Below, piece by piece: positions 364 through 36,466 of a DNA stretch of 37,671 bases (position 1 is its first letter; every line of letters starts with the position of its first letter). The stretch lies in assembly GCA_016202485.1 (NCBI GenBank), contig JACQOP010000039.1:1-37671 (forward strand). Reading direction: 5' to 3'. The position numbers and the translations under genes were made by a program. Origin of the DNA: Chloroflexota bacterium. Lineage in GTDB: Bacteria > Chloroflexota > Dehalococcoidia > Lucifugimonadales > JACPCL1. The notes below the pieces were generated by a model, which was given only the letters and a program-made list of their open reading frames with translations, did not search any database and was not told where the DNA came from.

Positions 364-840
364 ATGGACACCGAAGTCCGCAAACTCATCGCAAAGCTGG
401 AAGCCCAGAGGCGCGAGGCCATGGACCTGCTCCTGTCCCTCTCCGACGAGCAGCTTGGCCTCTCCTATACCGACCGTCCCGGCGGCGAGGAAGGCGCTTT
501 CACCATCCGCCGGCTCCTCCACCGCATTGAGACCCATCACCGGGACCATATCCAGCACCTGCTCAAGGTGCGCCGCAATATCGGCAAACCCGTGGACGAG
601 ACCACCCGGAGCCTCATAGAGATGCAGGCCGCACGCACCGAGCTCCTATCAAGCCTTATCGGCCTCACCGACGATGACCTGAAGATAGACGTGTCCGAGG
701 GCAACGAGCTGGGCAACTTGCAGCCCCGCGCAGGCCAGGAGCCGGAGTACACCATCAAGCGCATTGTGGAGCACGTAGTGGATATGGAGGAGATGCGCCT
801 GGGCCATATCCGCCAGGCCCTGGAAGGCGGCAGCCGTTAG
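364..840 (+). CDS. DinB/YfiT superfamily protein
   Basis: GGAGG before ATG 364. Motifs LSDEQL, TIRRLLHRIETHHRDH and TIKRIVEH; two internally similar helical halves. Confidence 0.75.
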   Translation: MDTEVRKLIAKLEAQRREAMDLLLSLSDEQLGLSYTDRPGGEEGAFTIRRLLHRIETHHRDHIQHLLKVRRNIGKPVDETTRSLIEMQAARTELLSSLIGLTDDDLKIDVSEGNELGNLQPRAGQEPEYTIKRIVEHVVDMEEMRLGHIRQALEGGSR

Positions 841-852
841 GCCAGGGGCAGC

Positions 853-1266
853 CTAAAGGGCGCTCTCTACCTTCAGAGGCACATGGGCCGCCATCTGGTC
901 AAAATGGCGGTCCCGGTGCAGCAAAACCACATCTTCCGAGAGCGCTAGGGCGGCGATGACGATGTCAGGTGTCGGCACTGTCACGCCCGCTCTCCTTAGT
1001 TGAAAGCCAAGGTCAAAGGCCTCTTCCCACGTCGCATCATGCAGGGGTAATTGCCGGAGAGAAGCTAGAAAGCGTCCGAGGCTTTGCCATTCCTCCCGAG
1101 TGCGCGTTCCTCGGAGGAGTTCCAGCTTGATCAAAGGCATCGTTGCTGCCAGGTCTTCTGCGACGAGGCGGCTGACTCTCCGGCTCAAGGGGGCATCGCC
1201 CTGCCGGGGCAGCAGGACTTCTAGCCACACTGAGCTATCTATCAGGACGCGTTCGGCACGAATCAT
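853..1266 (-). CDS. vapC: PIN-domain toxin (VapC family)
   Basis: VLIDSSVW, ELLRG, DIVIAALAL and HRDRHF acidic PIN motifs; overlaps the upstream antitoxin. Confidence 0.92.
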   Translation of the reverse strand: MIRAERVLIDSSVWLEVLLPRQGDAPLSRRVSRLVAEDLAATMPLIKLELLRGTRTREEWQSLGRFLASLRQLPLHDATWEEAFDLGFQLRRAGVTVPTPDIVIAALALSEDVVLLHRDRHFDQMAAHVPLKVESAL

Positions 1267-1459
1267 CTCGCAATTGCTCCAGCATCTCAGGAGTCAGTTC
1301 CAAGTCCCACGTGCCGAAAGTTAGGCGGAACTCTTCCAGCCTGCGCTTCCGGATCCCCTCCCGCATCGCCGCCTCAATCGTTTCTCTGATCCCCTTGGTG
1401 CCAAACTCTTTCTTGGCATCTTCCAAGAGGTCGTCATCTATGACCACTGTGCGCCGCAT
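1235..1459 (-). CDS. vapB: VapB-family antitoxin (copy 1, coupled to vapC)
   Basis: MRRTVVIDDDLLEDA...TIEAAMRE ribbon-helix-helix-type N-terminus; overlaps the vapC start. Confidence 0.88.
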   Translation of the reverse strand: MRRTVVIDDDLLEDAKKEFGTKGIRETIEAAMREGIRKRRLEEFRLTFGTWDLELTPEMLEQLRDDSCRTRPDR

Positions 1460-1498
1460 GTTCCACCTCTGCTTCCATAGTATAGAAATAGCATACCG

Positions 1499-1711
1499 CT
1501 ATTCGTCCTCTCCATCCTCCCGCATTTTCTCCAGCTCTTCAGCAGTCAAGCCCAGGTCCCATGTACCCAAAGACCGCCGCACTCGCTCCAGTTTCCGCTT
1601 GCGAATGGCTTCCTTCATCGCGGTCTCAATCGTCTCCCGGATGCCTTTGGTGCCGAACTCCTTCCGGGCCTCTTCCAACAGCTTGTCGTCTATCACCACC
1701 GTGCGCCGCAT
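1499..1711 (-). CDS. vapB: VapB-family antitoxin (copy 2)
   Basis: MRRTVVIDDKLLEEARKEFGTKGIRETIE, a close paralog of 1235-1459. GGAGAGG RBS before ATG 1711. Confidence 0.85.
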   Translation of the reverse strand: MRRTVVIDDKLLEEARKEFGTKGIRETIETAMKEAIRKRKLERVRRSLGTWDLGLTAEELEKMREDGEDE

Positions 1712-1786
1712 GGATACGCCTCTCCAATACACATTACTACTATGCATTCAGTATACGCATTCGCCCCTATCCCTTCAAGGAACGCT

Positions 1787-2539
1787 TCAGCCCCCAGTTA
1801 TCACTTCTCGCGCCCGACGCGGATAGTTGGTCATGAAGCCGTCCACCCCCAGTAGCGCCAGGGCGCGGATGTCCTCCACGCTGTCCGCCGTCCAGGGGAT
1901 GACCAGCAGTCCCGCGGCATGGGCTTCCCGCAGCCCGTCGGGGCGCATATCGTGGACCGCCGGATGCAGTACCGTCGCGCCCGCGGCCTTTGCCAGGGCC
2001 ACGTGGTCAATCACGTCCCCCCGGTAACACACGCCCGTCAGCAGCTCCGGCTCCCGGTTCTTGAACCGGCGCATGGCTACGTGGTCAAAGGACAGTATCT
2101 CATGCTCCCCCAGGACGCGCGCCCGCTCCAGCACCCCTGTCACCGACGCCTCTATCCCACGGTACCGGTGCGGGATATTCTTTACCTCAATCAGCAGCGG
2201 CAGCTTTCTCCTGGCCCAGGCTACCACCTCCTCCAGCATAGGAATCCGCTGTCCGGCAAAGCGCCGGTCAAACCAGGCGCCGGCATCCAGCCCCTTCAGC
2301 TCCGTCAGGGGCATACTCCGCACCAGGCCCCGCCCATTGGTGGTGCGGCCCAGCTCGTCATCGTGGAACACCACAGGAAAGCCATCCGAAGTGAGATGCA
2401 CGTCCAGCTCAATAGCGTCGGCCCCTTGCTCCAGGGCCAGCTCAAAAGCGGCCATGGTATTCTCCGGCGCTTCTCCCGATGCTCCCCGGTGGGCAATAAC
2501 CAGGGGCCGCCGGTGGTCCAGCAAGTCTGTGATCGCCAT
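1787..2539 (-). CDS. Glycerophosphodiester phosphodiesterase
   Basis: IAHRGASGEAPENT, ELDVHLTSDG..VVFHD, IEVK and WTAD GDPD motifs; GGAGGA RBS. Confidence 0.95.
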   Translation of the reverse strand: MAITDLLDHRRPLVIAHRGASGEAPENTMAAFELALEQGADAIELDVHLTSDGFPVVFHDDELGRTTNGRGLVRSMPLTELKGLDAGAWFDRRFAGQRIPMLEEVVAWARRKLPLLIEVKNIPHRYRGIEASVTGVLERARVLGEHEILSFDHVAMRRFKNREPELLTGVCYRGDVIDHVALAKAAGATVLHPAVHDMRPDGLREAHAAGLLVIPWTADSVEDIRALALLGVDGFMTNYPRRAREVITGG

Positions 2540-8396: not shown

Positions 8397-9050
8397 TTAC
8401 GGCCACGCCTCCCCTTTGTAGGCCATCTCCCAGAACAGATACTCGTACCGAAGGGCGGCGCGGAAGACCTGGCGGGCGCTGGCCTGACCCACTGGCGGAA
8501 TGCCGTCAACAATGGCCTTCATCGCCGCCACAAAGTCCCCCAGGGCCTGGTCGGCGTGGATGTCTATCCACTCCTGGTACATGCGGCGCCGTGGCCGTGC
8601 CCCTGTCTTGGTCAGGCGCGTCGCCCAGTCGTAGTACGTCCACTCCGTCACCAGCAGCCCCGTAGCGATGTCCTGGAAGCTCCCGTCGTAAGCGGTGGCC
8701 ACCAGGAAGTTAGCCATGTTTTGCCCCGTGGGCAGCGGCTCGGCGGAGTGGTAGGTCTCCGGCGGGACCCCTAGCTCCTGGAAGGCCCGGAAGAACAACT
8801 CCTTCTCAGCATTGAGGATGGTGTGCAGGAATGGCGAAAAGGGTTGGGCCGCTTCCAATGTGGGAGCCTTGCTCACCGCTTGGCCCAGCACCTTGGCCAG
8901 CGCCCCCAGGAACAGGTAGTCCTGGAGGAAGTATCGCTGGAACTTCTCCAGGGGCAAAGAGCCGTCGCCCATCTCCCGCACGAACGGGTGGGTTACCATG
9001 CGTTCCCACAGGTCGTGGTTAGCCTGCCGGAGGTCGTCTGAAAAGGGCAT
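8397..9050 (-). CDS. tenA: TenA-family thiamine-salvage protein (Cys-less TenA_E type)
   Basis: HPFV..MGDGSL, YFLQDYLFL, YQEWI and EYLFWEMAY motifs; last gene of the TPP operon; contains no cysteine. Confidence 0.9.
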   Translation of the reverse strand: MPFSDDLRQANHDLWERMVTHPFVREMGDGSLPLEKFQRYFLQDYLFLGALAKVLGQAVSKAPTLEAAQPFSPFLHTILNAEKELFFRAFQELGVPPETYHSAEPLPTGQNMANFLVATAYDGSFQDIATGLLVTEWTYYDWATRLTKTGARPRRRMYQEWIDIHADQALGDFVAAMKAIVDGIPPVGQASARQVFRAALRYEYLFWEMAYKGEAWP

Positions 9051-9119: not shown

Positions 9120-10133
9120 CTACATCGCCTCTTCTATAAAGCGATTGGTGAAGGCCGCTTTGCCGTCCACGGCCCGATCCACCAGGCCGTGCTCCAGCAT
9201 CCACTCGGCGAAGGCTACCCATTTCCCTTCCGTCTGCCAGCCGAAGGGGCTGTTCCCTTCAATCCACAAGGGGGCCAGCAGTTCCACACCGGGCCGCTCA
9301 ATGGCCTCGTCAATCTCTGGGGCCGCCTGTTTCAGCAAATCAATGGCCTTCTGGGGGTCCGCCACCGCCTCCTGATAGCCCTTCATGACGGCGCGGACAA
9401 ACCGCTGGACCAAATCGGATTGCTGCTCAGTCTTTGCCCTGCTGGTGACTACCACAATCTCGTAAAAGTCAGGGATACCCCAGTCCTCAAAGCGCAGGAC
9501 ATTCACCGGGAAGCCCTGGTTTTGAGCGGAGATAGACTCGTGTACCCAGTATGCCCCCGCAATGGCGTCTACCTGGCCGCTGATGAGGGCGGGCACCAGG
9601 TCAAAGCCTACGTTTACAAGGGTCACATCACTGAGGGACAGGCCCTCCTGCTTGAGCATAGTGTCCAGGAACGCCTCGTCTGTCGGCACCCCTGGAACGC
9701 CAATCTTCTTACCTTTCAGGTGGCTTGGCCGCTCTATGCCCGAGGACTCCAGGGCCATCACGGAGTTCAACGGGTGTTGCACCAGGGCAGCCACGGACAC
9801 CACGGGCACCCCTTGGGCCGCGGCAAACAGCACCTCGTTCTGGTAGCTTAGCCCAAAATCGTCCTGTCCTGCCCCCACCGTGGCAAGCACCGTGGAGGGG
9901 TCGTCAGGGGTGTAAATGGTGACGTCCAGCCCTTCCGCAGCAAAGTACCCCTTCTCTTTGGCAATGAAAAGGCCGCTGTGGTTGGACCAGGGGAACCAGT
10001 CCAGAGCGATGCGCACCTTTACCGTAGTGGCTGCCGTGGTGGAAGTTGGCGTAGCCGTGGTTTGAGCGCCGCCGCAGGCGGCTGCCAGCAGCGCCAGCAC
10101 TAGGGGAAATACCATGAACACCCTGGGGTTCAT
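9120..10133 (-). CDS. thiY: ThiY/NMT1-THI5-like ABC substrate-binding lipoprotein (HMP/FAMP)
   Basis: Lipobox LAAAC; ALDWFPWSNH, LKGKKIG and LISGQVDA motifs. AAGGAGG precedes ATG 10133; an alternative ATG at 10184 overlaps the permease stop. Confidence 0.88.
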   Translation of the reverse strand: MNPRVFMVFPLVLALLAAACGGAQTTATPTSTTAATTVKVRIALDWFPWSNHSGLFIAKEKGYFAAEGLDVTIYTPDDPSTVLATVGAGQDDFGLSYQNEVLFAAAQGVPVVSVAALVQHPLNSVMALESSGIERPSHLKGKKIGVPGVPTDEAFLDTMLKQEGLSLSDVTLVNVGFDLVPALISGQVDAIAGAYWVHESISAQNQGFPVNVLRFEDWGIPDFYEIVVVTSRAKTEQQSDLVQRFVRAVMKGYQEAVADPQKAIDLLKQAAPEIDEAIERPGVELLAPLWIEGNSPFGWQTEGKWVAFAEWMLEHGLVDRAVDGKAAFTNRFIEEAM

Positions 10134-10180
10134 ACAAGCCTCCTTACGTTTCTTCCTCAATAGGTTGTTCCACTGCAACT

Positions 10181-11047
10181 TCATAGTCCTGCCTCCTCCT
10201 CTCTGGACTGGCGCGCCCGGTAGTGCCAGGGCAGGGCTACGCGCTCTAGCAATACCACTGTGAGGAACAGCAGGATGCCCATGAGGGCCAGCAGAAACAC
10301 CGCCCCAAAGGAGCGCACCGTCAGGAACAGGGGTACCGACACCCGCGTCAGGTAGCCCAGGCCGGCGCTGGAGCCCACCCACTCCCCTACCACCGCACCG
10401 ATGACGCTGAAAGTCACTGCGACCTTTGTCCCAGAGAAGAGGAAGGGCATGGCGCTGGGGACCTGGACCTTGCGGAAAATCTGCCAGCGACTTGCCCCCA
10501 GGGTGCGCATCATGTTCACCATATCCAAGTCTACGGAGCGCAGCCCGTCCATGACATTGACCACGATGGGAAAAAAGGTAATGAGGACCACCACGACAAC
10601 CTTTGGGGCCAGCCCGTAGCCAATCCATACCAAAAGGAGGGGCGAGATCACGATGACTGGGATGGTCTGGGAGGCGATCACCAGAGGATAGACCGTGCGT
10701 TGGAAGCCCCGGAAGAAGGCCATGAGCGTAGCAAGAAATACCCCCAACAGAAAAGCCACCCCAAAGCCGATCAGGGCCTCTCCCAGGGTAACCCAGGCAT
10801 GACGCAGGAACAGAGCACGGCTGGCCACCAGTTCCTTGGCCACAGCATAGGGGGCAGGCAGCTTCCACGCAGGTATCTCAAAGAGGAGGACCGCTCCCTG
10901 CCAGAGGCCGAGGAGGAGGGCCAGGGCTGCCACCGGCCTGGCCCACGCCAGCACAAGGCGCTGCACCCTCGTCGCGTCAGAACGGTCTTTGCGGGCGGCT
11001 CGGCCTTTCTCCATAGGTGGCGTCACGGCTTCCGGCGCTACCTCCAT
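10181..11047 (-). CDS. thiX: ABC transporter permease (ThiX/SsuC type)
   Basis: SQTIPVIVISPLL, FFPIVVN, LGASRWQIF and GAVVGEW..SSAGLG motifs. Confidence 0.9.
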   Translation of the reverse strand: MEVAPEAVTPPMEKGRAARKDRSDATRVQRLVLAWARPVAALALLLGLWQGAVLLFEIPAWKLPAPYAVAKELVASRALFLRHAWVTLGEALIGFGVAFLLGVFLATLMAFFRGFQRTVYPLVIASQTIPVIVISPLLLVWIGYGLAPKVVVVVLITFFPIVVNVMDGLRSVDLDMVNMMRTLGASRWQIFRKVQVPSAMPFLFSGTKVAVTFSVIGAVVGEWVGSSAGLGYLTRVSVPLFLTVRSFGAVFLLALMGILLFLTVVLLERVALPWHYRARQSREEEAGL

Positions 11048-11853
11048 GGCTCCTCCTGAACCCCGGTGCTCTCCTTCCCCAGGGCTGCAAGGAGCTGGGC
11101 CTTGTAGGTGATGAAGGGTTCCTGCGTCACCACCAGATGGGTACGGGGGCGTGGTAAGTCCACAGCCAGCATCAGCCTCACCCGCCCAGGTCGGGCGCTG
11201 AACAGGTATACCCTATCCGAGAGGAACAGGGCCTCCTCCACGTCGTGGGTTACCAGCACAATCGTCTTGCGGAAAGCTGACCACAGCTCCAGAAGCCACT
11301 CCTGCATCTGGGCCCGGGTCAGCGCATCCAGGGCGCCGAAGGGTTCGTCCAAAAGCAGCACATCCTTTCCGGTGAGCACAGCCCGCAGGAATGCAGCACG
11401 CTGCCGCATACCGCCGGAAAGGGCGTAGGGGTACTCTCGCTCAAACCCCTTCAGGCCAAAACGCTCCATCAACTCCAGTGCCCGGGAACGGGCTTTGACC
11501 TTGGCTATCCCCTGCACCTCCAGGCCCAGCAGCGTGTTATCCAGGACGGTGCGCCAGGGCAGGAGCAGGTCCTTCTGGTGCATATAGCCTACCTGGCCCA
11601 GGGGCCTGCGGGCCTCCACACCGTTGAGCCAGAGAGTACCCCCACTCGGCTCTTCCAGACCCGCAATGATGTTGAGCAGTGTACTTTTACCACAGCCGCT
11701 GGGGCCAATGACGCTGACAACCTCCCCTTCCTGGGCATAGAAGTCCACGCTCTCCAGCACGGGAAGGGTGCGTCCCTTGTAGACAAACTCCTTGCTGATA
11801 CCATGCAAGGCTATCTTGGCCGAGGCTATTCTATCGTCCGTTGCGGTAGTCAT
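11038..11853 (-). CDS. thiZ: ABC transporter ATP-binding protein (ThiZ/SsuB type)
   Basis: GPSGCGKST, LSGGMRQR, LLLDEPFGALD and VTHD motifs. Confidence 0.92.
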   Translation of the reverse strand: MTTATDDRIASAKIALHGISKEFVYKGRTLPVLESVDFYAQEGEVVSVIGPSGCGKSTLLNIIAGLEEPSGGTLWLNGVEARRPLGQVGYMHQKDLLLPWRTVLDNTLLGLEVQGIAKVKARSRALELMERFGLKGFEREYPYALSGGMRQRAAFLRAVLTGKDVLLLDEPFGALDALTRAQMQEWLLELWSAFRKTIVLVTHDVEEALFLSDRVYLFSARPGRVRLMLAVDLPRPRTHLVVTQEPFITYKAQLLAALGKESTGVQEEPWR

Positions 11854-11861
11854 AGGACAGG

Positions 11862-11900
11862 ACAACAAATTGGGCCGCCAAGCGGGGACTGGCGGCCCAA
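11862..11900 (-). terminator. Intrinsic terminator of the TPP riboswitch expression platform
   Basis: Minus strand: TTGGGCCGCCA-9 nt loop-TGGCGGCCCAA followed by TTTGTTGT, between the aptamer and the thiZ start. Confidence 0.7.
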
Positions 11901-11920
11901 AAATATCATCGCCAAGACCA

Positions 11921-12020
11921 TATCCCTACGCTGGCATTACCCAGATCAGGTTCTAAGAAGGGTCGCCCCGATAGGTCGGGGCCTCTCAGCCTGGCTCTTA
12001 CCAAGCTCCCCTCCGGTCAC
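11921..12020 (-). ncRNA. TPP riboswitch
   Basis: Minus strand: GGGGAGC...GGCTGAGAGG...GACCC...GAACCTGATCTGGGTAATGCCAGCGTAGGGA, the THI-box consensus, upstream of thiZXY-tenA. Confidence 0.97.
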
Positions 12021-12110
12021 ATATTCAACTCTAAGAGCGTATTCTAGAGACACAGGAGGCAGACGTCAATGGCTCCCTTGCCACTCCCCTTGCTTCCTCA
12101 TGACGGAGCG

Positions 12111-17718: not shown

Positions 17719-18396
17719 CTAGGAAGCAAGCTTCTGCAAGACCTGATTCCAGAAGTCAGCGCTCTTGACTCCGTAGCCTTCTCTGAAGGTGATGACTCCA
17801 GACTCGTCCACGCCAATCTTTGTGGACTGAGTGGTGATGCTGTAAGCAGGCAGCATCCCAGATGGGGCCTCTGCCACAGGCCAGGGGTAACCCTGGGCTT
17901 GCTTGTAGGCAACGAGGTCTGACAGCTTTTCTGTGGGGTCAATGCCGATGGCAATGAAGTCCACCTTGTCCTGGTACCCGGGATAAATGTCTTTTAGCGA
18001 CCGTAACTCGGCGCGGCAGACCGGTCACCACGTGGTGAAGAAGTAGAGGACAACAGGCCTCCCATCCTCTCGTAGGGATGCGAGGCTGGCGCTCTGCCCG
18101 CTGTCCAGCGTCAGGATGAAGTCCGGCGCCCTTTCGCCCACCTTGGAGCCGGTGGGGGGCAAAGGAGAAGGGGTTGGCGCCGCCTCTGCCTCAGAAGGGG
18201 TGGGCTGTGCAGCGTCTTCTCCTGCTGGCGCTGCTGGGGATGGAGTCTCTGCCTGGCCAGCCGCCAGGGAAGGGGTGGAATCGCTGGGGGTACTGGCCGG
18301 CGCGCCGCAGGCCACAGTCGCCAGCACCCCCACCGTCAGCAGGAGGGCACGGGCGTGGCTGGACATAATAGAAAACAGTCGCCTGCGTATGCTCAT
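17719..18396 (-). CDS. Selenocysteine-containing TlpA/AhpC-TSA redoxin lipoprotein (UxxC; in-frame TGA at 18025-18027)
   Basis: Lipobox TVAC; VGERAPDF...PVVLYFFTTW-[TGA]-PVCRAELRSLKDIYPGYQDKVDFIAIGID. The frame continues without a shift into ORF 17719-17964. Confidence 0.88.
17989..18021 (-). promoter_or_regulatory. Putative bacterial SECIS element
   Basis: 3' of the UGA: GUCU-gcc-GCGCCG-aguua-CGGuCGC-uaaa-AGAC, a hairpin with a bulged U and GU in the apical loop. Confidence 0.65.
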
Positions 18397-18531
18397 ATCC
18401 CTTTTACGTTGGGCCGACAGGGGTAGTTCCATTCCTCTGGTCGCGCTCAAGGGGGACCTGGGACCCAACCTCTTTCATTGCCTAACACCACACCTGAAGC
18501 TCTACCCTCCGCTTCCCAAGAAAGCTGCTGG

Positions 18532-27231: not shown

Positions 27232-27366
27232 GGCCGGCATACCGCACACATGAGGAAAACCAGACGCTGCGCCCTTTGGATAGGCTCTGGCATCTAACCT
27301 ACCCTAGCCAGTTGGATGTCAGGCGATTATACTTTCCCCTATCCCACCGTCCACCTGAGGGTCCAT

Positions 27367-28665
27367 ATGAAAGAACTTCCCAAGCTGCCGTTTCAGGGCG
27401 TCCCCACAGACCCCGCCACCCTCTTTGCTGATTACCAGCAGGCCCGCAAGGTCACCGAGGCCATCTGCGCCCCTCTGGAGATTGAAGACTACATGGTCCA
27501 GGCCATGACCGATGCCAGCCCCGCCCGCTGGCACCTGGGCCACGTCACCTGGTTCTTTGAGACCTTCATCCTGAAGGAGTACACGCCCGGCTACAAGCCC
27601 GTCAACGACGTGTACGCATATCTCTTCAACTCCTATTACAACAGCGCCGGCCCCCAGTTCTACCGGCCCCATCGCGGCCTCATCTCCCGGCCCACCGTTA
27701 AACAGGTCTATGACTACCGTAAGCAGATTGATGAGCACATGGCGGACCTCATTGAAACTGCTCCACCCCACCTAATGGAAGGCCTTGTGGGGTCCCTCAT
27801 CATCCTGGGCGTCAATCACGAGCAGCAACACCAGGAACTCCTCGTGACTGACATCAAGTACAACCTCTCGGTGAACCCCTTGCACCCGGTCTATCAGAAG
27901 GTGAACATACCCAGCCTACCCCCAGCAGCCCCCCTGCGCTGGGTGCATTTTGAAGGCGGCCTCCACACCATCGGCCATGACGCCCAGGGGTTTGCCTTTG
28001 ACAACGAATGGCCCCGCCATCAGGCCTACGTTGCCCCCTTCCTCCTCGCCTCCCGCCCCGTGACCAACGCCGAGTTCATGGAGTTCATTGAGGCCGGCGG
28101 CTATGAGCGGGTGGACCTGTGGCTCTCCGCAGGGTGGCGCACCATGAAGGAGCAGGGCTGGCAAGCCCCCCTGTACTGGGAGAAGCATGACGGCCTGTGG
28201 TGGCACCACACCATGTCAGGCTTTCTGCCCGTGGACCAGAACGCCCTCCTCTGCCACGTCAGTTACTACGAAGCCGACGCCTACGCCCGCTGGCGGGACA
28301 AACGCCTGCCCACAGAAGAAGAATGGGAATTTGCTGCCCTGCGCCAACCCCTTCAGGGCAACCTCCTGGAGTCCGGCCTGTACCACCCCCTCGGTGGGAC
28401 GTCACCCAGGGCCGGCCAGGAGCTGGAGCATATGTTTGGCGACGTGTGGGAGTGGACCAAGAGCGCCTACCTCCCCTACCCCGGGTTCCAGCCCCTCCAG
28501 GGAAGCGTGGGCGAGTACAACGGCAAGTTCATGGTCAACCAGATGGTCCTCCGTGGCGGCTCCTGTGCAACGCCCCTGTCCCACATCCGGCCAACCTATC
28601 GCAATTTCTTCCCGCCCGACGCCCGCTGGCAGTTCTCTGGAGTCCGCCTGGCGGACGATGCGTAA
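27367..28665 (+). CDS. egtB: Ergothioneine biosynthesis sulfoxide synthase EgtB (type II-like)
   Basis: SPARWHLGHVTWFFE, FNSYY, HEQQHQELL, FGE-like domain, GEYNGKFM and YRNFF motifs. Confidence 0.95.
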   Translation: MKELPKLPFQGVPTDPATLFADYQQARKVTEAICAPLEIEDYMVQAMTDASPARWHLGHVTWFFETFILKEYTPGYKPVNDVYAYLFNSYYNSAGPQFYRPHRGLISRPTVKQVYDYRKQIDEHMADLIETAPPHLMEGLVGSLIILGVNHEQQHQELLVTDIKYNLSVNPLHPVYQKVNIPSLPPAAPLRWVHFEGGLHTIGHDAQGFAFDNEWPRHQAYVAPFLLASRPVTNAEFMEFIEAGGYERVDLWLSAGWRTMKEQGWQAPLYWEKHDGLWWHHTMSGFLPVDQNALLCHVSYYEADAYARWRDKRLPTEEEWEFAALRQPLQGNLLESGLYHPLGGTSPRAGQELEHMFGDVWEWTKSAYLPYPGFQPLQGSVGEYNGKFMVNQMVLRGGSCATPLSHIRPTYRNFFPPDARWQFSGVRLADDA

Positions 28666-29644
28666 GGGAATTTCTGTGTCCTACTCTCTAGACGTGTTCC
28701 TGGAACCCTATGCCTTCAAGCAGAACCTGGCAGCCGATGTGCGCCGGGGCCTCACAGCACCACAGAAATACCTCCTGCCTAAGTATTTCTATGACGACGC
28801 CGGCTCAAAGCTCTTTGACCGCATCACGGAGCTGCCAGAGTATTACCTTACCAGGACAGAGCAACACCTCTTCTCGTCAGTGAAGCCCCACATCCTCAAG
28901 GCAACGCGCCCCCAAGAGGTCGTGGAGCTGGGCTGCGGCAACGGCGATAAGTTCCGCTGGCTCTTGCACGCTGCCAGGGACAGGGAAATCTCCGCCTACA
29001 TTCCAATGGACATGAATGCCGGCCTGGTGGAGTCCGTGGCCAGGGACCTCGTACGGGACTACCCATTCCTAGCGGTCCACGGAATCGTTGGAGACTTTGA
29101 AACGCACCTGGCCCACATCCCACCGCCAAAAGGCCGCCGCCTGGTCACCTTTATGGGCAGCACCATCGGCAACCTGGGCCCGGAGCAACGCAAGGGCTTC
29201 ATTGCTCAGCTACGGTGCCTCCTGGACGAAGGAAGCCATGCCCTGATAGGTCTTGACCTGGTGAAAGACGCAGGAATGCTGGAGGCAGCCTACAACGATC
29301 AGGCGGGGGTGACTGCTGATTTCAACCGGAACATCCTGCTTGTCCTGAATAGGGAGCTTGCCGGCGACTTCCGGCCTGAAACCTTTACCCATCACGCCTT
29401 CTTCAATAGAGAAGCCAGCCGCATAGAAATGCACCTGGTCTCCCGGAAAGAGCAGCAGGTGCGCCTCGCCGCTCTGGAAATGCAGGCAGCATTTCAGAGT
29501 GACGAGACCATCTGGACGGAAAGCTCCTACAAGTTCACCGTTGGTATGGTGGAAGAGATGCTGGCGGCAGGCGGTCTGCGATTGGAGCAGTGGTATACCG
29601 ATGAGGCAGGCTGGTATGCGTTGGCCCTCATTGGGACAGCCTAG
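28658..29644 (+). CDS. egtD: L-histidine N-alpha-trimethyltransferase EgtD
   Basis: PKYFYDDAGS.LFD.ITELPEYY, ELGCG, GSTIGN, AYND..GVT.DFN and TESSYKF motifs; overlaps the egtB stop (alternative GTG at 28676). Confidence 0.95.
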   Translation: MRKGISVSYSLDVFLEPYAFKQNLAADVRRGLTAPQKYLLPKYFYDDAGSKLFDRITELPEYYLTRTEQHLFSSVKPHILKATRPQEVVELGCGNGDKFRWLLHAARDREISAYIPMDMNAGLVESVARDLVRDYPFLAVHGIVGDFETHLAHIPPPKGRRLVTFMGSTIGNLGPEQRKGFIAQLRCLLDEGSHALIGLDLVKDAGMLEAAYNDQAGVTADFNRNILLVLNRELAGDFRPETFTHHAFFNREASRIEMHLVSRKEQQVRLAALEMQAAFQSDETIWTESSYKFTVGMVEEMLAAGGLRLEQWYTDEAGWYALALIGTA

Positions 29645-29949: not shown

Positions 29950-31380
29950 TTATTTGGAGCCGAAGTCTAGGGGCAGGACCACCTTGAAAGTCGTTCTCCC
30001 TGGAACAGAGTCCACTTTGATCTCGCCCTTGTGCTTGAACGTCACGATGTTATAGCTGATGTCCAGTCCCAGGCCCGTCCCCTTTCCCAGCGGCTTTGTG
30101 GTGAAAAAGGCGTCAAATATCCTGGGAAGAACGTGGGGCGGAATGCCTGGGCCGTTGTCTTCCACCTCTACCACCACACTCCCCTCCGCCGTATACGTGC
30201 GCAGCCGGATCTCCCCCTGTCCATCAAGAGCATCCGTCGCATTGTCTATGAGGTTCGTCCATACCTGGTTCAGCTCGCTGCCATACCCCTGGATTTTTGG
30301 CAGGTCAGGGCTGTATTCCCGTTTGACCTGGATGCCCCCCTTCAGCTTGTGGCGCAAAATCAGAAGGGTGTTGTCCAGCCCTTCATGGATGTCCACCTCC
30401 TGCACAGGAGCCTGGTCCAGATAGGAATAGGACTTCAGTGCGCGAACAATGTCGGAGATTCGCGTTGCCCCCTGGCCTATCTCGGTCATCAGGTTGTGGA
30501 CGTTGTAGACGCTGATAAGCCGGCGCAGGACAGCCTCTAGATGGCCCTCCTGAAAGGTCTCGCCCAGCTCTGCCAGCTCCTCCTGGCCAAGAGCAAGGTT
30601 CACAAGGTCAGGGGCAAGCTCCCATCCATCGGGCACCCCTTGGTCTTCCAGCCACTGCTCCAGCTCGTATGCCTTGTCGCTGCGGCTAAGCGCATCCATC
30701 TCAACATAGGCAGTCGCCCTCGTCCGGGCTAACTGGGTGAACGGCTGTAGCACATGGCGCTGAGCTTCTGTAAGGCTCATCATATCCAGACGCCCTTGCG
30801 CCTCTCCGTAGTGGGCCACCGCCTCCCGGAGCTGCTCCGCGCCCCGTTTCACCGCCGCCGCGGGATTGTTTAGCTCGTGGGCCACCCCGGCAGTCAGCGT
30901 CCCAAGCTGGGCCATCTTCTCGCTCTGGCGGAGCACGTTCTCCGTGGACCGCCACCGTTGCAGCACGGTGTGCATCACCGCTTTCGCTGCGGCGGTGCTT
31001 ATGTCCAGCAAGTGGTCAAACTGCTCCTTGTGTATGGCGTAGAGCACCGACTCACGACTGGCGCGCACGGTGGCGGTCCGGGGCATCTGTTCCAGGAGGG
31101 CCATTTCGCCAAGGATGTCGCCCGGCTCGTTGCGCAAGGACAAAAGCACCTGCCGCCCCCCCGTCTCTTTCAGTACCTCCAGCTCCCCGCTCTTCAAAAT
31201 ATAGGCCTTGTCCCCAGGTTCCCCTTCCTTGCACAACACTTCCCCAGGGGACAGGCACACTTCCTCCGCAGACTCACACAAGCGCTCCAAGTCCTCCTCA
31301 GGCAGGCTGCTAAACAGAGGCACCTTCCTTAGGAATTCGTGCGCCAAAGTATGCTGGCAGTTGTCGGTCAAGCTATTCAT
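29950..31380 (-). CDS. Cytoplasmic histidine kinase with N-terminal cNMP-binding domain
   Basis: GEMALL..PRTATVRA (cNMP), AHELNNP (H-box), LNQVWTNLIDNA, DNGPGI and FFTTK..GKGTGLGL. Confidence 0.95.
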   Translation of the reverse strand: MNSLTDNCQHTLAHEFLRKVPLFSSLPEEDLERLCESAEEVCLSPGEVLCKEGEPGDKAYILKSGELEVLKETGGRQVLLSLRNEPGDILGEMALLEQMPRTATVRASRESVLYAIHKEQFDHLLDISTAAAKAVMHTVLQRWRSTENVLRQSEKMAQLGTLTAGVAHELNNPAAAVKRGAEQLREAVAHYGEAQGRLDMMSLTEAQRHVLQPFTQLARTRATAYVEMDALSRSDKAYELEQWLEDQGVPDGWELAPDLVNLALGQEELAELGETFQEGHLEAVLRRLISVYNVHNLMTEIGQGATRISDIVRALKSYSYLDQAPVQEVDIHEGLDNTLLILRHKLKGGIQVKREYSPDLPKIQGYGSELNQVWTNLIDNATDALDGQGEIRLRTYTAEGSVVVEVEDNGPGIPPHVLPRIFDAFFTTKPLGKGTGLGLDISYNIVTFKHKGEIKVDSVPGRTTFKVVLPLDFGSK

Positions 31381-31409
31381 GGCGGCCCTTTATGTATGGT
31401 TCCCTTCAA

Positions 31410-33071
31410 TCATACCGTTGCCAGGTACTGGTGAACAAGGCTCACGGCTATAGCGCCCTCTCCGACAGCAGAGGCAACCCTGCGGACCACACCATTACGC
31501 ACGTCTCCGGCGGCAAAGATGCCGGGGACGCTGGTCTCCAGCAAATAAGGGTCGCGGTTGGGCTTCCACCCCTTGGGACGCTGCCCGTTCTTCACAAGGT
31601 CAGGGCCGGTAAGGATCAGCCCCGCAGGGTTTCGCTCCACAACCCCGGCCACCAGGTCCGTGTGAGGGCTGGCGCCAATGAACACAAACACCGCTGAGGC
31701 GGGCGCCGTGCTCTCAGCCCCGTCAAGCCTGTTCTTGAGGGTAATAGTCTCCAACTTGCGCTGTCCGCCCACCGCGCTGACTTCTATATTGGTCCGGACC
31801 TCTATGTTCGGGGTCTTGTGTATCTGGTCTACCAGATAGTGGGACATGCTTTCGGCTATGGAGCCGCCGCGCACCAGCATGGTGACCCTGCTTGCATACT
31901 GGGCAAGAAAGATAGCCCCCTGCCCTGCCGAGTTGGCGCCCCCCACCACAAAGACGTGTCCCCCTTTGTAATAGGCCGCCTCCGTCATGGCAGCGCCGTA
32001 GTAGACACCGGCCCCCGTAATGGCCTCGGCTCCTGGCACCATCAGCTTGCTCACCGTAACCCCCGTGGCAATAATCAAGGCACGGGACACCACCTCGGAG
32101 CCGTCATTGAGCGTCACAATGCGATTGGGGTCTTCCACACGTACCTTCACCGCTTCCAGCCCCGTCAGGATCTCAGCGCCGAACCGGCGGGCTTGAATGG
32201 TCGCCCGCTGGGCCAGGTCGCTGCCGCTTAGCCCGTTGGGGAACCCAAGGTAGTTCTCAATGCGGGAAGAGGTGCCAGCCTGCCCACCCGTGGCCTGGCT
32301 CTCTATCATGGCAGTGCGCAGGCCCTCGGAGGCCCCATACACGGCAGCCCCCAGTCCTGCAGGGCCTGCGCCGACAATGACAATATCGTACAGGGGCTGG
32401 TTCGCGTGGGTCTGCAAGCCCACTTTTTCTGCAAGGCTTCTGGTGTCCGGCTCAATGAGCACGTCCCCATCGGGCAAAAAAATCACCGGAAGGCGGTGCT
32501 GGCCTTGGTTGACCTCCTCCACCAGCAGCCTCGCCTGCTCATCCTTCTCCACGTCCAGCCACTGGTAGGGAATGCGGTTGCGGGCCAAGAAGTCCTTGAC
32601 GTTGTGGGAGGCGCTGGACCACTGGGTTCCTGCCACCCTGATGCCCTCGTAGGGTAAGGGAGTGGCTGCAGCCCAGACGGACAGCAGGTCGTCAAGGACG
32701 GGATAGAGGTTCTGCTCTGGCGGGTCCCAGGGCTTCATCAGGTAGTAATCAAGCCCAACGTCGTTGATGCTCCGGATTGCCGCCTCTGTATCGGCGTAGG
32801 CGGTCAGCAGGACTTTTTTTGCCTCTGGGTAAAGGCGCTTGGCCTCCGCCAGGAACTCAACCCCCGTCATCGCCGGCATGCGCTGGTCCACCAGGAACAG
32901 GGCAATGGGGTCATTGCGGCGCTTGAACTCCTTCACCGCCGCCAGCGCCTCCTTACCAGAAAATGCCTTGACAATCCGGTACTCGCGGCGAAAGTGGGAC
33001 CGCAAGTCCCGCTCTACGGCGTTCACCACCTGGGGCTCATCGTCAACTGTCAGGATAATGGGCGTAACCAT
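31410..33071 (-). CDS. Response-regulator receiver / Grx-like / thioredoxin-reductase-like FAD oxidoreductase fusion
   Basis: VDDE, VDQRMP, LLTAY, KPW (receiver); GAGPAG, ENYLGFP, GGANSA, FAAGDVR (TrxR fold). Confidence 0.93.
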   Translation of the reverse strand: MVTPIILTVDDEPQVVNAVERDLRSHFRREYRIVKAFSGKEALAAVKEFKRRNDPIALFLVDQRMPAMTGVEFLAEAKRLYPEAKKVLLTAYADTEAAIRSINDVGLDYYLMKPWDPPEQNLYPVLDDLLSVWAAATPLPYEGIRVAGTQWSSASHNVKDFLARNRIPYQWLDVEKDEQARLLVEEVNQGQHRLPVIFLPDGDVLIEPDTRSLAEKVGLQTHANQPLYDIVIVGAGPAGLGAAVYGASEGLRTAMIESQATGGQAGTSSRIENYLGFPNGLSGSDLAQRATIQARRFGAEILTGLEAVKVRVEDPNRIVTLNDGSEVVSRALIIATGVTVSKLMVPGAEAITGAGVYYGAAMTEAAYYKGGHVFVVGGANSAGQGAIFLAQYASRVTMLVRGGSIAESMSHYLVDQIHKTPNIEVRTNIEVSAVGGQRKLETITLKNRLDGAESTAPASAVFVFIGASPHTDLVAGVVERNPAGLILTGPDLVKNGQRPKGWKPNRDPYLLETSVPGIFAAGDVRNGVVRRVASAVGEGAIAVSLVHQYLATV

Positions 33072-33128
33072 ACACGAACTCGTAACCCCTCACACTCAGA
33101 TTACCTGGCCCCTGCAGCAGGTCGGCGG

Positions 33129-33455
33129 TCAGGACCGTTCCCCTCTGCGGCTCCGCCCCCTTCTACGTGCCGTCCTGAGCGTCGGCGCTTCACCCACAAC
33201 AGCATCATCCACGTAGCACCATATCCACTCCTCATCGGGTTCAAAAGACTGCACCAGGGGATGCCCCACGGTCCGGAAGTGGCCGCTGGCATGCTTGTTC
33301 TTGGAATCGTCGCAGCAACCCACGTTGCCGCACGTGAGACACATGCGCAGGTGCACCCACCTGTCCCCAATGGCCAGGCACTGTGCACACCCCTGGGCGT
33401 TCGGAGTCACATCCTGCACCGCATCCCCATGCTCGCAGTCTATTTCAATGGCCAT
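33129..33455 (-). CDS. UBP-type zinc finger protein
   Basis: CEH..CAQC...WVHLRMCLTCGNVGCCDDS..KHA..H...EEWIWCYVD; GGAGGA RBS before ATG 33455. Confidence 0.92.
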   Translation of the reverse strand: MAIEIDCEHGDAVQDVTPNAQGCAQCLAIGDRWVHLRMCLTCGNVGCCDDSKNKHASGHFRTVGHPLVQSFEPDEEWIWCYVDDAVVGEAPTLRTARRRGRSRRGERS

Positions 33456-33526
33456 TATTCCTCCTTGGATAGTCCAATGCCCCCCTAAGAGGGCCGTGCG
33501 CTGCCTTCTCCCAGCAACCCTTAGCC

Positions 33527-34300
33527 TCACGAGTCCAAACGCATCACCCGGATCACGACCGGCTGCTCCCGGCCACGGACGCTGACAGTCCGCTGCTCCA
33601 GGCTCGGATACCGGTCCGCCACGTACTGGTAAATGGTGTCGCTCAACACTACCTCTCCCCCCTGGGCCTCCGCCTGCAGCCGGGCAGCCGTGTTGACGGT
33701 GTCTCCCAGGACCGTGAAGTCGTGGACACCGCCACTGCCGATCTTGCCCACAAAGGCGGTGCCTGTGTGGACAGCAACACCCAGAGGCAGCCAAGGGGCC
33801 TGCGTGCTGCCATAGCCCACGGCCCTGAGTAACCCTTCCGCAGCCAGGACTGCGTCCTTCTGGAAGGTCGGGGCCCGGGCAGGAAGAAAGAAGGCCATCA
33901 CCTCATCCCCCAGCATCTTGTCAATGATGGCCCTGTGGTCCACCAGCACGCTCGTCGCTGCAGCGTAGAAGCGGTTCAGCAGCCCGGCGAAGGCCCCTGC
34001 CCCCATATGCTCCCCCAGCGCAGTGGAGCCACGCACGTCTGCAAACAGCACAGCAATGTCCACCTCTGCGCCCCCTACGGGCAGGATGTCATCACACAGG
34101 TTGCACATGTTAGGGTTCTTGCGGGAAGGCCCCCGTTTCCCTAGCCGGGCAACCACACCACCTACTCCTCCAAAGGGAGTGCTGCACACCAGGCAGCGAG
34201 GGTTGCTGGGCAACACCGCAAGGCGGGAACGGTGTCCCTTGGTCAGGACATCCCGCCACACGGCTTCAATCTCCGGCGATACGTTTTGCTGGTTTGCCAT
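33527..34300 (-). CDS. Class III adenylate/guanylate cyclase with N-terminal CxxC...CxxC region
   Basis: FADVRGST, DKMLGDEV and FTVLGDTVNTAARL motifs; CLVC and CNLC upstream. Confidence 0.93.
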   Translation of the reverse strand: MANQQNVSPEIEAVWRDVLTKGHRSRLAVLPSNPRCLVCSTPFGGVGGVVARLGKRGPSRKNPNMCNLCDDILPVGGAEVDIAVLFADVRGSTALGEHMGAGAFAGLLNRFYAAATSVLVDHRAIIDKMLGDEVMAFFLPARAPTFQKDAVLAAEGLLRAVGYGSTQAPWLPLGVAVHTGTAFVGKIGSGGVHDFTVLGDTVNTAARLQAEAQGGEVVLSDTIYQYVADRYPSLEQRTVSVRGREQPVVIRVMRLDS

Positions 34301-35953: not shown

Positions 35954-36466
35954 CTACACAGCCGCCCGCTCCGCCTGGGCCGCCAGCTTTTTGACCGCCG
36001 CCGCCAGTTCCCCCATGTCCCCAATAGCCACGTCGGCATGGCGGGCATCCCGGCTGGAATGGGCGGTGAACCAGATAGTCTTCAGACCAACAGCCTTGGC
36101 CCCAGCAATATCAGTGACATAGTTGTCCCCCACCATGATGCACTCCTGGGGCTGGAGGCGCAGCTTCCAGAGGATACCTTCAAAGAACCGGGGGTCGGGT
36201 TTCTCCACCTCCAGTTCTCTCACCGTAAACACGTGGCGGATGTAGGGGTCCAGGCCAACCTTCTCCAGGACCAGGCTCAGCGCCGTGGACTCCGGCCCCC
36301 GGGCATTGGAGGCGATGCAGCACAGGTACTGCTGGTGCAGGTCTTTCAGCGCCTGCGTGACCCCAGGGACCACTTCCATTGTAGGAGAAGTGGCCGAGGG
36401 CCTGCGAGTCAGGGGGATCTCCCGCATAAGGGTGTTCCCCCAGTCAAAAGCAATGGCTTTGATCAT
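35954..36466 (-). CDS. HAD-family hydrolase
   Basis: FDWGNTL, IASN, EKPDPRFF and MVGDNYVTDIAGA motifs. Confidence 0.92.
   Translation of the reverse strand: MIKAIAFDWGNTLMREIPLTRRPSATSPTMEVVPGVTQALKDLHQQYLCCIASNARGPESTALSLVLEKVGLDPYIRHVFTVRELEVEKPDPRFFEGILWKLRLQPQECIMVGDNYVTDIAGAKAVGLKTIWFTAHSSRDARHADVAIGDMGELAAAVKKLAAQAERAAV

Follow-up and report, generated by a model that had tools for sequence, protein, structure and literature searches.

An in-frame TGA at the active site of a lipobox-bearing redoxin gene from Chloroflexota is probably read as selenocysteine

Does the TGA that divides a redoxin gene on a Chloroflexota contig end a protein, or is it read as selenocysteine (Sec)? The window analysed here is the whole of a 37,671-nucleotide stretch, contig JACQOP010000039.1 of assembly GCA_016202485.1, and the gene in question lies on its minus strand. 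Under genetic code table 11 it is called as two open reading frames (ORFs), 18025..18468 (147 amino acids, with the C-terminus ...VVLYFFTTW) and 17719..17964 (81 amino acids). An earlier note on this DNA (the original prediction) had proposed that these calls split one gene for a membrane-anchored redoxin, in which Sec replaces the first Cys of the redox motif and a selenocysteine insertion sequence (SECIS)-like hairpin follows. Our analysis indicates, with a probability of roughly 0.87, that 18396..17719(-) is one intact gene encoding a selenoprotein of ~225 residues whose active-site UGA is read as Sec. The features described in the original prediction are all borne out by the sequence, and its interpretation is supported.

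Reading through TGA 18027..18025 joins the two ORFs into a single minus-strand frame of 225 codons, from ATG 18396 to TAG 17721..17719, in which this triplet is the sole interruption; the frame stays open to 17719, as had been proposed. A second in-frame ATG at 18366, the start chosen by the database model P0006, is an alternative to ATG 18396. The TGA occupies the first Cys position of a W-C-x-x-C redox motif, within FFTTW-U-PVC-R (residues 119–128 of the joined frame). The Pfam families AhpC-TSA (1.4e-15, 57.8 bits against a cut-off of 26; profile positions 1–88 of 124 only) and Redoxin (2.5e-12) match residues 85–176 across U124. The gene is continuous across the UGA.

A HMMER search of 1.84 billion representatives recovered 946 relatives at E <= 1e-10, the best 150 of which were examined; it was used in place of an earlier word-index homolog search that had given 4 matches. 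Among the best 150 of the 946 relatives, three end at ...TW (P0006, which is the window's own fragment and ends at W123; P0120, 53% identical; and P0007), and 14 start at query residues 126–135, just past the motif. These models imply that gene callers cut the gene at one codon in many species. Full-length Cys homologs place their Cys at the UGA position, for example in TTWCPTC and ATWCPVC.

The corresponding DNA was scanned in one genome per species with the peptide that lies just before the TGA (from the six-row alignment A3), which gave 80 loci (L001–L080) with 84 pattern sites. The codon that follows the pattern is TGA at 57 sites, TGC at 17, TGT at 9 and AGT at 1. The record titles of all 57 TGA sites name Chloroflexi/Chloroflexota, Dehalococcoidia or SAR202; the 26 Cys forms are from Chloroflexota (12), archaea (7) and other bacteria (7). 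Four further TGA redoxin paralogs were found by scanning the loci with the hairpin rule given below. In every one of the 58 TGA forms, the window included, the frame is open for 83–113 codons past the TGA (median 102), and tblastn alignments extend to residue 223–225. L001 is the closest relative, with 62% identity over residues 30–225, and has in common with the window a convergent neighbour encoding an alpha/beta-hydrolase. UGA and Cys alternate at one codon among the homologs, as a Sec/Cys pair. The Cys-bearing counterparts that the original prediction had named as worth seeking are these 26 TGC or TGT forms, which occur only in other lineages or clades; the homologs do not end at the shared position.

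A few database proteins have unusual residues or boundaries at this site. P0002, a metagenome protein 46% identical to the window protein, has W at the Sec position (FATW-W-PVC), probably because the gene caller translated TGA as Trp. P0007, P0092 and P0107 begin just past a UxxC motif or carry a Cys copy, and their C-termini fall at the following ...ATW, ...ATY or ...ASF, which suggests frames with two redoxin units each and, in some variants, a Y or F preceding the TGA.

Directly downstream of the TGA is the bulged hairpin with an aGUua loop that had been noticed at the outset. Its 5′ arm GCGCCG and 3′ arm CGG-u-CGC, with one bulged U, enclose the loop AGUUA (-7.9 kcal/mol); the stem begins 10 nt and the loop 16 nt past the UGA. 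The bacterial SECIS (bSECIS) model, as given in the available text of PMC13188914, has an apical loop of 3–9 nt, an upper stem of 4–16 bp, a G in the first two loop positions, 16–37 nt between UGA and loop and an MFE (minimum free energy) not above -7.5 kcal/mol. Checked by hand against these published constraints, the window hairpin agrees with all of them (5-nt loop with G second and U third, 6 bp, 16 nt, -7.9 kcal/mol).

For comparison across the family we scored a hairpin as present when at least 5 of 6 pairs (in either of two registers) and an xGUUx loop occurred at the fixed distance from the TGA. This rule holds in 58 of 58 TGA forms, the window included, whereas among the 26 Cys forms the pair count is reached in two and the GUU loop is found in one. 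The mean folding energy at the site is -8.5 kcal/mol in the TGA forms versus -4.3 kcal/mol in the Cys forms. The TGA forms fall into two classes. In the unbulged class (34 sequences, of which 32 are distinct), the paired share of cells is 95.8%, as against 25–57% with slid partners, both sides have changed in five of the six pairs (G-C to U-A, C-G to U-A and so on), and the covariation score of 0.453 was reached in none of 500 shuffles (shuffled mean 0.149). In the bulged class, which contains the window (24 sequences, 20 distinct), 99.2% of cells are paired, and pair 16-29 is A-U in 13 sequences, G-C in five and G-U in one. RNAalifold recovered the same hairpin unprompted in both classes. Because the stem lies within the codons R128-x-E-L-R-x133, residues 129 and 133 change together, in the combinations A/S, T/L, S/S and A/R. 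The hairpin is conserved, covarying and tied to UGA rather than to Cys codons, in keeping with the UGA-plus-3′-SECIS arrangement first suggested for this gene.

Applied to every TGA triplet of the window, the rule passed 2 of 1009, namely the Sec site and a false match at 1803(-); the latter lies in a non-coding frame with stops on both sides and is taken as chance background. Among the TGA triplets of the loci, 74 of 18222 passed. Sec-candidate sites in frame account for 64 of the 74 (57 already known, 4 redoxin paralogs and 3 sites in an AhpD-like gene), with 10 others making up the remainder. A search of the window at Rfam gathering thresholds found no family for the hairpin, the only hit being a thiamine pyrophosphate (TPP) riboswitch elsewhere, and a permissive Rfam search of 17900-18100 gave only a chance match to a CRISPR repeat on the other strand (E = 0.87).

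Related genomes lend indirect support to Sec use. L004, from a complete Dehalococcoidia chromosome, carries a full-length selA at 811-2169(+) (Pfam SelA, 2e-137), ~2 kb upstream of the orthologous Sec-redoxin gene, and the same selA is present at L006:781-2136 (94% identity) and at L007:1-531, where the locus edge cuts the gene. According to the portion of PMC13326102 available, two Dehalococcoidia are among the ten largest bacterial selenoproteomes in BSepDB, with 49 and 46 selenoprotein genes. Three loci also contain a second candidate selenoprotein, a CMD/AhpD-like protein with C-R-Y-U (CxxU), at L023:1554-2108, L024:377-931 and L049:3095-3649 (all on the plus strand; TGA at L023:1740, L024:563 and L049:3281). 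Its TGA is followed by a GGAGG-GUU-CCUCC hairpin at the same distance as in the redoxin, and the L024 copy matches Pfam CMD at 3.7e-07.

The encoded protein is probably a lipobox-anchored, TlpA/ResA-like redoxin, tethered by a linker outside the cytoplasmic membrane. Its N-terminus reads as positive charge, then a hydrophobic stretch, then the lipobox ATVAC; the lipobox Cys30 is invariant in alignment A3, and a lipobox-like signal occurs in 52 of the 58 TGA forms (in one of the six others, the locus end cuts the gene). Residues 31–84 form a putative linker of 54 residues that is 89% P/A/S/T/E/G and varies in length and sequence among homologs. The predicted anchor and Pro/Ala/Ser linker accord with the original proposal. 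The best relatives of solved structure are 2ls5, ResA 4nmu (profile alignment E = 1.3e-28), StoA 3erw, CcmG/DsbE and TlpA. In NCBIfam the ResA subfamily comes closest, at a score far under its cut-off (50.6 vs 170 bits), and the protein likewise falls outside StoA (39.4 vs 210), DsbE (28.5 vs 359), TlpA (21.3 vs 230) and MauD. The peroxidatic motif PxxxTxxC of peroxiredoxins was not found, residues 113–127 being R-P-V-V-L-Y-F-F-T-T-W-U-P-V-C, a thioredoxin-type WCxxC. Statements on the thioredoxin fold and on cis-Pro (below) rest on sequence alignment.

Other explanations of the interrupted frame were weighed against Sec insertion. If TGA were a sense codon throughout the genome (table 4 or 25), the gap in the gene would be closed just as well. 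However, the 32 Pfam-supported ORFs of the window end at TAG (15), TAA (9) and TGA (8), and the eight that end at TGA have full-length domain matches. ORFs called in the loci with TGA as a stop likewise give full-length Pfam matches. The window contains no other convincing gene with an in-frame TGA: among 63 read-through candidates listed, only the site at 18027 looked real by motif and context, the others not having been individually searched. Since TGA ends 8 of the 32 supported ORFs and no other coding in-frame TGA is present, the code is standard and genome-wide reassignment is excluded; we give this reading next to no weight. Given a G+C content of 60.3%, the window uses TAG as a stop unusually often and TGA unusually seldom. 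A lone in-frame stop in one sequence also looks like a nonsense mutation, or an assembly error, in a dead gene whose TGC/TGT or TGG was mutated or misread, and P0002 could be cited in its favour, as TGG to TGA is a single transition. The W of P0002 is more simply TGA read as Trp by a gene caller, however, and a dead gene fits poorly with a TGA shared at one codon by 57 (+4) independent loci of 35–62% protein identity, with conservation and an open frame in the downstream half of all 58 forms, or with a hairpin that covaries. We regard decay or error as exceedingly improbable.

Termination at the UGA, leaving a lipoprotein stub of 123 residues and an 81-codon ORF (17964..17719) that is separate or untranslated, agrees with the table-11 gene calls and with P0006. 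It is nonetheless very unlikely. The Pfam domain spans the stop, and the stub would contain ~39 residues of a fold of ~140 residues. Database ORFs for the downstream part begin at a range of internal codons (query residues 126–135), and termination would leave unexplained a hairpin that covaries and keeps its distance from the UGA. The UGA might instead be recoded to another residue, either through near-cognate read-through stimulated by the hairpin (Trp, Cys or Arg) or through delivery of Cys-tRNA(Sec) by SelB. The inserted residue is predicted here from sequence and the window holds no Sec machinery, both of which leave room for this explanation. Against it, the site is the nucleophilic Cys of a CxxC motif, in a classic Sec/Cys pair; the loop keeps the bSECIS G-U dinucleotide in all 58 forms; three relatives have an adjacent selA; and Trp or Arg at the site would abolish the redox motif. 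Recoding to a residue other than Sec therefore seems to us unlikely, with a small chance of being correct.

Several observations count against the selenoprotein reading or against its functional part. No selA, selB, selD, tRNA-Sec or indeed any tRNA was found in the 37.7-kb window, so the genome's Sec competence is unproven, and no tRNA-Sec was found in L001–L060 (60 of the 80 loci scanned). Folding of the single window sequence gives nothing out of the ordinary (z = -1.35 for 27 nt, -1.12 for 43 nt, -0.04 for 53 nt and +0.17 for 76 nt). A lower stem (7-10/36-39) is paired in 63.8% of cells, no better than in shuffled or slid controls, and because it is not conserved it probably lies outside the element. 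The loci were drawn with a peptide pattern derived from the family, so their Sec:Cys ratio is not a population estimate. The canonical cis-Pro of TlpA/ResA-type redoxins was not found in a 51-sequence alignment of the subfamily (A6): the L-P-T of ResA is aligned opposite the family's T-T-K ([TQ][TS][TS]K), Pro is present at positions 189–192 in 0 of 51 members, and Lys193 is present in 49 of 51, in Sec and Cys forms alike. As cis-Pro defines the substrate-binding loop of TlpA/ResA redoxins, the chemistry may differ from the TlpA/ResA model. Finally, no ccdA/dsbD, resBC, ccm or sco gene was found near the redoxin gene (40 ORFs in the window; 103 ORFs in 13 loci), and with no ccdA/dsbD, resBC or ccm gene nearby the electron donor and substrates are guesses.

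For the selenoprotein reading, we infer the following course. SelB-GTP-Sec-tRNA(Sec) would bind the hairpin 16 nt past UGA124, with its 6-bp stem and its AGUUA loop carrying the G-U dinucleotide, and Sec would be inserted in place of termination. The product would be exported via its N-terminal signal peptide and lipidated on Cys30, and the flexible Pro/Ala/Ser-rich linker would keep it attached to the cytoplasmic membrane on the outer side. There, Sec124 would make the nucleophilic attack and Cys127 would resolve the intermediate (U-P-V-C), and this selenenylsulfide cycle could serve to reduce the disulfides (or sulfenates) of exported proteins or to exchange them, in the way that TlpA, ResA and CcmG employ Cys. 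The electron donor is presumably a CcdA/DsbD-type membrane protein encoded elsewhere.

Several genomes carry two or three Sec-redoxin copies, often in tandem, each with its own TGA and hairpin (Table 1); in several assemblies the total is three. We built a quick maximum-likelihood tree of 83 rows (the short rows L057 and L069 were dropped), midpoint-rooted and with many forks unresolved, in which the window groups next to L001. The Sec label requires 3 changes on this tree, as against ~22 with shuffled labels. A nine-member Dehalococcoidia Cys clade is nested in a well-supported clade that otherwise consists of 25 Sec forms, which fits at least one replacement of Sec by Cys, the root not being established. 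As to neighbouring genes, six loci of one clade (L036, L041, L042, L045, L047 and L059) have a transfer-messenger RNA (tmRNA) gene with the tag GENKVALAA or GEKQVALAA, together with smpB, directly upstream (~150–700 nt before the redoxin match). In L031 a DUF255/Thioredox_DsbH protein is encoded near the redoxin gene.

AhpC/TlpA-like selenoproteins of this general kind are on record, as the original prediction had stated. In the accessible text of a 2026 review (PMC13188914), peroxiredoxin (Prx)-like thiol:disulfide oxidoreductase selenoproteins (PF00578, UxxC) are graded ‘predicted with high confidence’. The consulted portion of the Global Ocean Sampling (GOS) survey (PMC2398784) has ‘Prx-like 1’ (pfam00578, UxxC, 225 sequences), and that of the Sargasso Sea survey (PMC1088965) has a ‘Prx-like protein’ and a ‘thiol-disulfide isomerase-like protein’. 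Like the Prx-like selenoproteins, the window protein is of the AhpC-TSA family, has UxxC with Sec first, a bacterial SECIS directly past the UGA and widespread Cys homologs. Its clade differs from them, by description and not by reference sequence, in being lipobox-anchored and multi-copy, in lacking cis-Pro and, as sampled here, in occurring only in Chloroflexota. The thiol-disulfide isomerase-like selenoprotein (cd02966, TlpA-like, UxxC in the available text of PMC13188914; first from PMC1088965) is, again by description, a TlpA-like redoxin with UxxC, as is the window protein; the 2005 survey had four sequences, with no taxonomic assignment noticed in the part of PMC1088965 at hand.

Bacillus ResA/StoA, Bradyrhizobium TlpA and E. 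coli CcmG/DsbE are Cys-containing, membrane-anchored extracytoplasmic reductases with solved structures. The window protein resembles them in its predicted thioredoxin fold, W-C-x-x-C-type motif and putative extracytoplasmic anchoring, over an alignment of ~120–140 residues. In contrast to them, it has Sec for the nucleophilic Cys, its subfamily has Ser/Thr followed by a near-invariant Lys for cis-Pro, and its gene lies outside any cytochrome-c-maturation gene context. The hairpin, for its part, resembles the E. coli fdhF-type SECIS and the bSECIS consensus in lying directly 3′ of the UGA in the coding region, in its small loop with G then U, in its 16-nt spacing and in its MFE <= -7.5 kcal/mol (PMC13188914, as far as its available text goes). 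It differs in being short, with only a 6-bp conserved stem and no Rfam family, and SelB binding is putative. Our literature search found no paper joining selenoprotein and SAR202, and searches on selenocysteine in Dehalococcoidia and on the selenoproteome in Chloroflexi gave nothing on this subfamily, the BSepDB family table lying outside their coverage.

Table 1. Coordinates of the Sec-redoxin gene and its parts in the window, and positions of tandem copies in related loci
Feature	Position	Strand	Remarks
Whole selenoprotein gene	17719..18396	-	225 codons including one UGA; stop TAG 17721..17719; start ATG 18396 or 18366
Predicted signal peptide with lipobox A-T-V-A-C	18307..18396	-	Cys30 codon 18309..18307, predicted lipidated mature residue 1; pattern match only
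Pro/Ala/Ser/Thr-rich linker, residues 31–84	18145..18306	-	Assigned by composition
Predicted thioredoxin-fold redoxin domain, residues 85–225	17722..18144	-	Pfam and PDB relatives; sequence only
U-P-V-C redox motif	18016..18027	-	Sec124 UGA 18027..18025; resolving Cys127 18018..18016
SECIS-like hairpin	17997..18014	-	6-bp stem; bulged U 18000; apical loop AGUUA 18008..18004; within codons R128-A-E-L-R-S133
Candidate lower stem, 18021..18018 with 17992..17989	17989..18021	-	Predicted for the window sequence only
[TQ][TS][TS]K motif, Q190-S-T-K193	17815-17826	-	Site of the ResA cis-Pro in the alignment
Tandem Sec-redoxin paralogs	L005 4130, 5077; L008 3612, 4199, 5083; L011 4130, 4966; L014 3167, 4142		
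Tandem Sec-redoxin paralogs (continued)	L022 4130, 5011; L051 4130, 4978; L060 4164, 5093		

Elsewhere in the window, the TPP riboswitch (11905-12022(-), 62.4 bits) lies upstream of genes for an ABC ATPase (11038-11868), a permease (10181-11047), an NMT1/THI5-like binding protein (within 9120-10868) and TenA (8397-9050), likely a thiamine-precursor salvage operon. At 27316-29644(+), an EgtB-like gene (DinB_2 + FGE-sulfatase) adjoins an EgtD-like gene (Methyltransf_33, 1e-102); these are probable ergothioneine synthesis genes and a second low-molecular-weight thiol theme in the window. A signalling cluster at 29950-34300(-) includes a cNMP-binding histidine kinase (29950-31380), a response-regulator receiver fused to a pyridine-nucleotide-disulfide oxidoreductase (31410-33071), a zf-UBP protein (33129-33794) and an adenylate/guanylate cyclase (33527-34300). 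The HAD-like ORF at 35954-36466 seemed in Pfam to be an N-terminally short gene, and proved intact.

UxxC redoxin selenoproteins have been known since 2004–2005, and both these and selenoprotein-rich Dehalococcoidia are already in print; the window gene adds a member, and the result overturns nothing current. The modest new points are a clean covariation series for a short SECIS, the multi-copy expansion in Dehalococcoidia and the missing cis-Pro. The gene and dozens of public Dehalococcoidia orthologs are stored as truncated halves, which means that protein catalogues under-count a family of exported redox enzymes. The 61 natural variants of one short hairpin are a ready mutational series for SelB recognition in Chloroflexota. 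The organism is marked as a likely selenium user, which bears on the reading of all other in-frame TGA codons in its genome. More tentatively, and with doubt prevailing on our side, the window gene could represent a distinct, Chloroflexota-centred subfamily of lipoprotein Sec-redoxins, with two or three copies per genome (often in tandem), [TS][TS]K for cis-Pro and the SECIS stem in the codons of the post-active-site helix (R-x-E-L-R-x), so that residues 129 and 133 co-vary for RNA rather than protein reasons. If so, the subfamily may carry out chemistry other than disulfide reduction of the ResA/TlpA type; in aerobic SAR202/Dehalococcoidia it might, for example, act at the cell surface as a peroxidase-like enzyme or as a selenenylsulfide relay.

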